This document shows positions 31,284-32,898 of a DNA stretch of 36,560 bases, one piece after another. The position numbers were made by a program, and so were the translations under genes. Location of the stretch: IMG/VR virus record IMGVR_UViG_2724679539_000003, positions 1 through 36,560 of that record. One strand, given 5' to 3'. Origin of the DNA: a virus. Taxonomy: Duplodnaviria > Heunggongvirae > Uroviricota > Caudoviricetes. Below the pieces are notes generated by a model that was not told the origin of the DNA, ran no database searches, and was given only the letters and a program-made list of their open reading frames with translations. Position 1 is the stretch's first letter. Every line of letters begins with the position of its first letter.

Positions 31284-32306
31284 ATGGCAAAATTAAATGC
31301 TAGCGAAAGACTCGTTACTCATCATAGTCTGACCATTGACACAAAGTTTAGAACCAAGGCAACACAAGAGGTAAAAGCCCAGTGTATATGTCCTGTTCCG
31401 GAAATGTACATGCTTGCCCCATTGATTGTTAAACAAAAGGGACTCGTTCATTCATATGATTCTGGGAATATTGTAGTTACTCTCCAAGATGTACAACTTT
31501 ATCCTTTACTTCCAGATAACTCACCCACGCATATTGTCCTTCTTATTAATAGTGTTGATAAAAATGGAAGTACTACCGTTGTAAAAAATATAAATACTAA
31601 TGAACGCGTTGAAATCCAACCAAAATATGAACAAGGTGAAGGCTATGAAGTTTCTACCTATGTTGTCATATCATTAAATGGAAATAAAAGAACCTATGAT
31701 ATGATTTGTACATCTACCCCAGGTGTATCTACGGCCCGGTTAAATAGTTTTTTAGACAAAATTCTCTTTGAAGTGGCGAAAGACAATGAAGACTTATTTA
31801 CCGCAAAACATCCAACTAACGTTATTTCTGCAACATCAAAAAAAGAAGTAAAAATACGATACAAACCAATATTTGAATTTACAGGAATGTTAGACAAGGA
31901 GCTTTTTAATAAAATAAGCCAAAAAGGATTATCAGATGTCATATTAGTCAAGGATCAATTCGGAACAATTAATGCTCCTGATGTTAATTCACCTTACATT
32001 CCGACTGAAAGTACATTAAAATTACTTCCAAATCATGGTGACAATGTTATTGGATGGATTAAAAATGTAGCATCTCATTTCAATAAAAAAATGAATGGTG
32101 GTTATGATAAATTAAAGGTTAAATTCCAAGATCCTGAAACAAATAAACCAAGGCAGGTTGATTTCAAAACCTCAAACATCAATCTTAATAATTTAGAAAA
32201 AACATTTATTAAGAAAAGCATTATCGATAACTTTAATTCGCGCCTGAAGGATTCATATGTTAAAATTGAACTAGAGTTTGTTGTGAAAATGATAGATTTG
32301 ATGTGA
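31284..32306 (+). CDS. Hypothetical 340-aa soluble protein (cassette B gene 1)
   Basis: AT-rich ORF on the opposite strand to all phage genes; Lys/Asn-rich; no recognised motif; translationally coupled to gene 2 (7-nt gap). Confidence 0.65.
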   Translation: MAKLNASERLVTHHSLTIDTKFRTKATQEVKAQCICPVPEMYMLAPLIVKQKGLVHSYDSGNIVVTLQDVQLYPLLPDNSPTHIVLLINSVDKNGSTTVVKNINTNERVEIQPKYEQGEGYEVSTYVVISLNGNKRTYDMICTSTPGVSTARLNSFLDKILFEVAKDNEDLFTAKHPTNVISATSKKEVKIRYKPIFEFTGMLDKELFNKISQKGLSDVILVKDQFGTINAPDVNSPYIPTESTLKLLPNHGDNVIGWIKNVASHFNKKMNGGYDKLKVKFQDPETNKPRQVDFKTSNINLNNLEKTFIKKSIIDNFNSRLKDSYVKIELEFVVKMIDLM

Positions 32307-32313
32307 GGTTATT

Positions 32314-32898
32314 ATGCCAATACTTTCAGTTTTCTCTCATCTAGGCAAGCCGTTTGGATATCTTTTTATTAAAGGTATTAGCGGCAAAGCTGCATATGAT
32401 TGGGTAGCACCAATTCTACTTACTTCTATCACAGCAGTACTTTTCATTCTATTAAAAATCCCTGTCAAAGATTTATTTGATGACAATGGTTTCATTAAAT
32501 CAATCGTTTCATTTATCTCTAACCTACCAGGGTTTTATATTGCCGCTCTGGCCGCCATAGCAACTTTCAATAGAGCTGAGATTGATTTACCATTGATTAG
32601 CAATGAAAGAAATGCCTCTATTGAAATAAAAGTAACAAAAGAAAATGGAAAAGTAGTAAATTCAGAGGAGGTTCTGACCAGACGATTATTTCTTTGCATG
32701 CTATTCTCTTTTTTAACAGCATTAAGCATTGTTATAATAATACTTAATGCTATATTTTCACCATTAATCAATGTCTATCAAAACAGTATTGTTTTAATGG
32801 TTTATACTGTTGTATTTACTTTCCTAGTTTGGCAACTCTTAGTATCAACTTTCTTTGGATTATATTATCTCGGAAACAGAATTCATATGAATTATTAA
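32314..32898 (+). CDS. Hypothetical 194-aa integral membrane protein, about 4 TM helices (cassette B gene 2)
   Basis: TGAGG RBS 6 nt upstream; four hydrophobic stretches (APILLTSITAVLFILL, FYIAALAAIATF, LFLCMLFSFLTALSIVIIILNAIF, VLMVYTVVFTFLVWQLLVSTFFGLYYL). Confidence 0.65.
   Translation: MPILSVFSHLGKPFGYLFIKGISGKAAYDWVAPILLTSITAVLFILLKIPVKDLFDDNGFIKSIVSFISNLPGFYIAALAAIATFNRAEIDLPLISNERNASIEIKVTKENGKVVNSEEVLTRRLFLCMLFSFLTALSIVIIILNAIFSPLINVYQNSIVLMVYTVVFTFLVWQLLVSTFFGLYYLGNRIHMNY

Follow-up and report, generated by a model that had tools for sequence, protein, structure and literature searches.

What does an AT-rich pair of genes do in a prophage when it is inserted, antisense to the late genes, between the gene for the Q antiterminator and the lysis genes? 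The question is raised by a 36,560-nucleotide stretch of tailed-virus DNA (Caudoviricetes; positions 1 to 36,560 of IMG/VR virus record IMGVR_UViG_2724679539_000003), referred to here as the window. An initial annotation, made from the letters alone, had described a cassette of two plus-strand genes, A and B, encoding a soluble protein of 340 residues and a protein of 194 residues with four transmembrane (TM) segments. Both genes are present exactly where it placed them (Table 1), with no TM segment in protein A and four hydrophobic helices in protein B, and the neighbours are indeed Q and a lambda-family holin. The GC content is 0.30–0.36 over 31200–32900 vs 0.50–0.58 in the flanks, which bears out the AT-richness, and the suggested translational coupling agrees with a spacing of 7 nucleotides (nt) and a GAGG Shine-Dalgarno sequence overlapping the gene A stop codon. 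The prophage is SfII-like: its cassette region shares 99.8% identity with Shigella phage SfII, in which gene A is SfII_50 and gene B is SfII_49, both annotated as 'hypothetical protein'. In this cassette the prophage probably carries a RexAB-type abortive-infection (phage exclusion) system of two components, a reading that builds on the family membership, obligate pairing, RexA-like predicted fold, protein B topology and motifs, and hotspot residence of the SfII pair.

Both proteins match the PDC-M53 family catalogued in PADLOC (PADLOC-DB v2.0.0) over their full length. Protein A matches the PDC-M53A model PDLC04696 with E=2.1e-32 (residues 7–340 on profile positions 4–318 of 320) and four more M53A models at 1e-12 to 1e-15, and protein B matches the PDC-M53B model PDLC04699 with E=1.8e-54 (residues 6–193 on positions 2–187 of 188). 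With the two genes adjacent and co-oriented, the pair is a member of PDC-M53. In PHROGs the two proteins match families of unknown function, phrog_9879 and phrog_8257. The pair is of a known kind and belongs to a catalogued family, which corrects the earlier view of a possibly undescribed module without a family match. PDC entries in PADLOC are unpublished, experimentally untested candidates, and PDC-M53 carries no description. Pfam and NCBIfam scans of A and B, and Pfam scans of 101 family-A members, returned sub-threshold noise only, and the A and B profiles found no match among all PDB sequences. Nothing specific to PDC-M53, to the WP_ and YP_ accessions or to a lambdoid Q–holin defence hotspot was found among searchable papers.

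The protein B family comprises 682 clusters at E<=1e-3, including members from Vibrio, Shewanella, Aeromonas, Halomonas and Chromobacterium. The motifs LPGFYIAALAA, LTRR and GLYYLG, located in membrane helices, are invariant across the family, and SfII protein B retains every invariant residue. Protein A gave 30 matches in a word-indexed search and 261 clusters in an exhaustive hidden Markov model (HMM) search of 1.84 billion representatives; among the best 150 of these 261 clusters, nearly all are 300–360 residues long. In these comparisons, protein B is the conserved partner and protein A the fast-diverging one. When one genome per species was scanned with profile guidance, 58 loci were returned, from Alpha-, Beta- and Gammaproteobacteria and from one Desulfobulbaceae metagenome-assembled genome. 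With HMMs built from our own alignments, a same-strand A gene lies directly upstream of B in 59 of 63 cases, separated by −53 to +83 nt and mostly by −4 to +12 nt, and two of the other four loci are cut by contig ends. Because 59 of the 63 B genes have A directly upstream, the pair is an obligate two-gene module of fixed order, and the co-occurrence in other genomes that had been proposed as a check is found.

A function is suggested by PP_5643/PP_5644 of Pseudomonas putida prophage P1, named RexABpp by Rosendahl et al. (Sci Rep 2026, PMC12894663). Both genes are needed for defence against two phage groups, when RexApp is overexpressed, growth is arrested and the membrane permeabilised in a RexBpp-dependent manner, RexApp binds DNA and dimerises, and self-association of RexBpp requires a free C-terminus (PMC12894663). 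The reported sizes, 37.5 kDa with tag and at least 181 residues (PMC12894663), fit PDC-M53 rather than lambda Rex. The comparison with RexABpp was made through termini translated from the published cloning primers and through mutated residues matched to the pair of Pseudomonas sp. 286 (L049). The primers give MHRTATFV...VYNKQSRLMV for RexApp and MLIGQLANP...LYYLGYKLQE for RexBpp, each followed by a stop codon. The L049 A protein begins MHRTATFVDIK; its B protein, of 188 residues, has the C-terminal end WGLYYLGYKLQE and is identical to RexBpp at five of seven mutated positions (W25, F35, L55, G153 and Y181). The L049 pair scores 1.5e-149 on PDC-M53A and 4.8e-71 on PDC-M53B, and its identity to the SfII pair is 43% for B and 21% for A. 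In SfII protein B, W30 and Y185 are the counterparts of the RexBpp loss-of-function positions W25 and Y181. Since L049 matches the RexABpp termini and residues, PDC-M53A/B and the SfII pair, the SfII pair and RexABpp appear to belong to the same two families, with support that is indirect but specific. The equivalence of PDC-M53 and RexABpp is stated in no searchable paper, and exact-match scans of viral and species-representative genome collections with the 5' end of P. putida rexB found none.

Structural models of both proteins were generated with AlphaFold2. The model of protein A has a mean predicted local distance difference test (pLDDT) value of 77 and a predicted template modelling (pTM) score of 0.70, with residues 95–122 of low confidence. 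Its best match is RexA (8TWQ), and it adopts a RexA/RdgC-like two-domain fold. The model of protein B (pLDDT 84, pTM 0.81) is a four-helix membrane bundle with a β-hairpin in the extramembrane TM2–TM3 loop (residues 86–122). Four hydropathy peaks agree with this bundle, and the charge distribution is compatible with an N-in/C-in arrangement. Protein B, a four-TM inner-membrane protein whose gene directly follows gene A, reproduces the layout of lambda RexB. Searches by fold told little about protein B; Foldseek comparison of its model with BFVD gave no match below E=0.9, and in global superposition a 165-residue protein of Mycobacterium phage Sbash came out best (TM-score 0.41–0.46), which was not confirmed as the RexB-like gp31.

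In control searches, lambda RexA scored 1e-97 on Pfam PF15969 and 9e-110 on PADLOC RexA, and lambda RexB matched Pfam PF15968 and PADLOC RexB. The two RexA models had no match from SfII protein A or from any of the 101 family-A members, and the two RexB models had none from SfII protein B. Profile alignment with hhalign, using single sequences and then 4-sequence alignments, was significant with neither input; protein A aligned with lambda RexA with P=0.08 over 80 collinear C-terminal columns (P=0.026 for the Pseudomonas subclade) and protein B with lambda RexB with P=0.08–0.09, compared with 0.27–0.48 for mismatched controls. Membership of the lambda RexA and RexB sequence families is not supported, and the proposal that the SfII pair would work like Rex is well supported.

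According to the mechanism proposed here, the cassette would have a promoter of its own and be expressed from it in the lysogen, antisense to the late genes of the phage and without depending on them. A TTGTAA-17-AAAAAT sequence at 31238–31266, read by eye, is a weak promoter match that scores below the scanner threshold, and a GGATGA Shine-Dalgarno sequence stands 4–5 nt ahead of the gene A ATG. Protein A would be a soluble, probably dimeric DNA-binding protein of the RexA/RdgC fold that senses some feature of an infecting phage, possibly a DNA–protein intermediate of replication or recombination. Activated A would switch on B, which would oligomerise through its conserved helices and its free C-terminus (GLYYLG); the contact between the two proteins might involve the B loop 86–122 and the conserved C-terminus. 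Judging from RexBpp, membrane integrity or potential would then be lost, growth would stop and the superinfecting phage would not be replicated. The defence phenotype and B-dependent toxicity are known from relatives, as are DNA binding and dimerisation; dimerisation together with non-specific DNA binding has been shown for lambda RexA, Sbash gp30, CarolAnn gp44, Toast gp42 and RexApp.

The Q–holin junction, which the initial annotation had taken for a cargo site, proves to be a hotspot for cargo in this lineage of prophages, and sister prophages hold other cargo in the same slot and orientation. The cassette occurs at >=99.7% identity in nine of 5,426 complete E. coli genomes (the nine come from different hosts and countries), and in the four of these loci that were inspected it lies between Q and holin of SfII-like prophages. 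The variable segment begins at ~31233, where homology with phage vB_EcoS-569R4 and E. coli H22 stops, and ends at the Q stop codon, where homology between cargo variants resumes; a hairpin peculiar to each cargo separates its last gene from Q. In H22 the slot contains a very divergent PDC-M53 pair of 311 and 189 residues (L077 1836–3373), which scores 1.6e-44 and 6.9e-33 with our own HMMs and 1e-17 and 1.6e-39 with PADLOC. Two distant alleles of the PDC-M53 family thus share one hotspot. The cargo of E. coli HUSEC2011 (L075 1976–3437) and 569R4 (L074 1708–3103), in the same orientation and with a GC content of 0.31, is an overlapping gene pair for a soluble protein (308 and 286 residues, respectively) and a 182-residue protein with 3–4 TM segments. 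Neither PADLOC nor Pfam has a match to this pair, no similarity to the A and B families is detectable, and an uncharacterised exclusion module of analogous kind may be encoded here. In an O128:H27 strain, the cargo is a large metallophosphoesterase.

In other genomes, the nearest neighbours of the pair include type I restriction–modification (R-M) genes (three loci), a cI/LexA-type S24 repressor (five of 46 related loci), integrases and resolvases, genes for phage tails, a P2-like prophage carrying Eco29kI R-M, and a DUF927/AlpA island. The pair is rare, being found in 6 of 50,697 phage records and 5 of 72,556 plasmids. Vibrio phage 10N.286.54.C7_PE001 (Vinavirales), a PM2-like temperate phage of 14.6 kb without a tail, has an overlapping PDC-M53-type pair of 327 and 189 residues (L079 6001–7546) that adjoins its integrase; carriers of the module thus come from very different virus lineages. 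A side observation concerns Vibrio coralliilyticus, in which a second pair of 330 and 197 residues (L006 3197–5457) lies ~3 kb upstream of the first and adjoins genes for OmpA-like, 550-residue and HNH/DUF8245 proteins; it may reflect tandem diversification inside a defence island. Three further PDC-M53A matches were seen among the neighbours of other loci.

Each rival explanation is less likely than RexAB-type abortive infection. Given its high AT content, its weak promoter match and its presence in only nine of the E. coli genomes, the SfII copy might serve no function at present and be a passenger, inactive or silenced by H-NS. This is unlikely, as both open reading frames (ORFs) are intact, the cassette is nearly identical in all nine genomes and in SfII, and no invariant residue of the B family has been lost. 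It is quite unlikely that the pair tunes the prophage's own cycle, through a lysis–lysogeny bias or holin-dependent lysis timing, and excludes no other phages. Lambda RexA does bind DNA and bias the bistable switch toward lysis, independently of RexB (PMC11077077), the cassette abuts the lysis genes, and the S24 repressor near five of 46 related loci points the same way. However, the pair also occurs near type I R-M genes, in the DUF927/AlpA island and beside the integrase of the PM2-like phage, all without a Q–holin context, and the member from P. putida is a genuine defence locus. Moreover, because sister prophages hold unrelated cargo in the slot, the cassette is dispensable for the lytic programme.

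A toxin–antitoxin-like addiction module, in which the toxin B and its controller A stabilise the prophage and sense no phage, would account for the growth suppression caused by triggered B-family proteins and for the tight coupling and mobility of the two genes; the swapped Rex-like roles in mycobacteriophage Butters also indicate that this architecture is mechanistically flexible. Such a module is very unlikely in view of P. putida, where deletion of either gene sensitised the cells to phage and where the normally muted toxicity of RexBpp appears on RexApp overexpression, not on loss of A, which is the opposite of antitoxin logic (PMC12894663). The least probable explanation, and a highly improbable one, is a Kiwa-like system of inverted order in which the membrane protein senses phage attachment and the soluble protein is the effector. 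The layouts are superficially alike (a four-TM protein of ~190 residues and a soluble protein of ~320 residues) and protein A may bind DNA, but the features of Kiwa, namely KwaB with DUF4868, a four-TM KwaA and the order kwaA–kwaB, were not found, and neither sequence nor fold matched.

The new points are modest: that PDC-M53 appears to be the RexABpp family, that this family is broad, and that the lambdoid Q–holin junction is an exchange slot for pairs of this kind. A wider joint reading, doubtful at present, is that PDC-M53/RexABpp forms a large, fast-diversifying sister family of lambda Rex and that the SfII-like Q–holin junction is a dedicated slot for exclusion modules made of a sensor and a membrane effector. 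The slot contains at least two divergent PDC-M53 alleles and a third, HUSEC2011-type pair of like layout, and the family so conceived may span the Alpha-, Beta- and Gammaproteobacteria and temperate phages with and without tails. Among Shigella serotypes, Shigella flexneri 2a is the most prevalent, and SfII is its serotype-converting phage. A Rex-type module in SfII, and in some prophages of Shiga toxin-producing and extraintestinal pathogenic E. coli, could narrow the range of hosts open to therapeutic or typing phages. With PDC-M53 linked to RexABpp, the annotation 'Rex-like exclusion system' could replace 'hypothetical protein' for many pairs across Proteobacteria, and more two-gene exclusion modules might be sought at the lambdoid Q–holin junction. 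Within the wider, doubtful reading, if the antisense placement makes Q-dependent late transcription collide with transcription of the cassette, the prophage could silence its own abortive-infection system on induction, which would be a new self-tolerance logic.

Table 1 Cassette features and flanking anchors in the window.
Feature	Position	Strand	Description
Conserved block with terminator-like hairpin	31150..31232	-	Left-hand hotspot anchor, outside the system
Upstream DNA unique to the cassette	31233..31283	+	Presumed promoter and ribosome-binding site (RBS) of gene A
Gene A (SfII_50)	31284..32306	+	PDC-M53A family; presumed sensor/DNA-binding component
Coupling junction	32301..32316	+	Gene A stop TGA 32304-32306, overlapping GAGG RBS, gene B ATG at 32314
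Gene B (SfII_49)	32314..32898	+	PDC-M53B family inner-membrane protein; presumed membrane-damaging effector
Hairpin AAGCCC-TACAG-GGGCTT	32897..32913	.	Covers the stop codons of the convergent genes B (+) and Q (-)
Q antiterminator	32902..33267	-	PF06530, E=9e-45; right-hand hotspot anchor, outside the system
Lambda-family holin	30672..30998	-	PF05106, E=7e-25; followed by endolysin and Rz

The hairpin between genes B and Q is possibly a bidirectional terminator belonging to the cassette, to judge from its sequence; it was not called by the terminator scanner because it lacks a T-run. On the other side, the ~80 bp conserved block, common to 569R4, H22 and many lambdoid and Shiga toxin phages, includes a terminator-like hairpin at 31172..31151 (minus strand). 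The label tR' considered for this hairpin was withdrawn because the Q–S region of lambda itself does not align there.

The initial annotation had placed all other prophage genes on the minus strand, which does not hold: tail-fibre and tail-fibre-assembly genes at 8855–9795, an integrase fragment at 6270–6827 and a unit at 28629–29652 lie on the plus strand. This last unit, also AT-rich, contains ORFs of 117 and 208 residues between Rz and the HNH/terminase genes; the 208-residue product belongs to phrog_12494, of unknown function, and neither ORF has a Pfam or PADLOC match. The same position holds IS911 and a 206-residue ORF in the SfII reference and, in relatives from E. coli, either an ORF of 113 residues or an S1 peptidase, so it is another variable cargo slot. 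At 7339–8172 on the minus strand, an AT-rich gene (GC content ~0.36) encodes a 277-residue protein with a Pfam HNH domain, which matches PADLOC PDLC03656 (type IV methyl-directed restriction enzyme) over its full length with E=1e-200 and is McrA-like; it is a predicted second defence gene in the same prophage region. The left part of the window (940–6827) consists of host DNA, with a 1090-residue inverse autotransporter/invasin-like gene and a PhzF-family gene, and then the integrase fragment of 185 residues, which places a prophage end inside the window.

The initial annotation had likened the layout of the pair to RexAB or Kiwa; its functional intuition was good and its interpretation is partly supported. 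The comparison with Kiwa (KwaA/KwaB), which shares a four-TM protein and a soluble protein of ~300 residues, fails on order, sequence and fold; the gene order is opposite and the roles of sensor and effector are assigned oppositely. The comparison with RexAB stands through the P. putida RexABpp families. The SfII pair is located at the Q–holin junction, antisense to the late genes, in Shigella and E. coli, whereas RexABpp lies downstream of a cI-like repressor in P. putida, and the phenotype is known for RexABpp only. In lambda, the order cI-rexA-rexB is under PRM, and the proteins are smaller (A 279 vs 340 residues and B 144 vs 194 residues), SfII protein B having the extra β-hairpin loop. 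Nonetheless, lambda Rex shares with the SfII pair a prophage-borne soluble protein followed by a four-TM membrane protein, the predicted fold of protein A is closest to that of RexA (8TWQ), and A-triggered, B-dependent membrane damage is common to lambda Rex and PDC-M53/RexABpp members.
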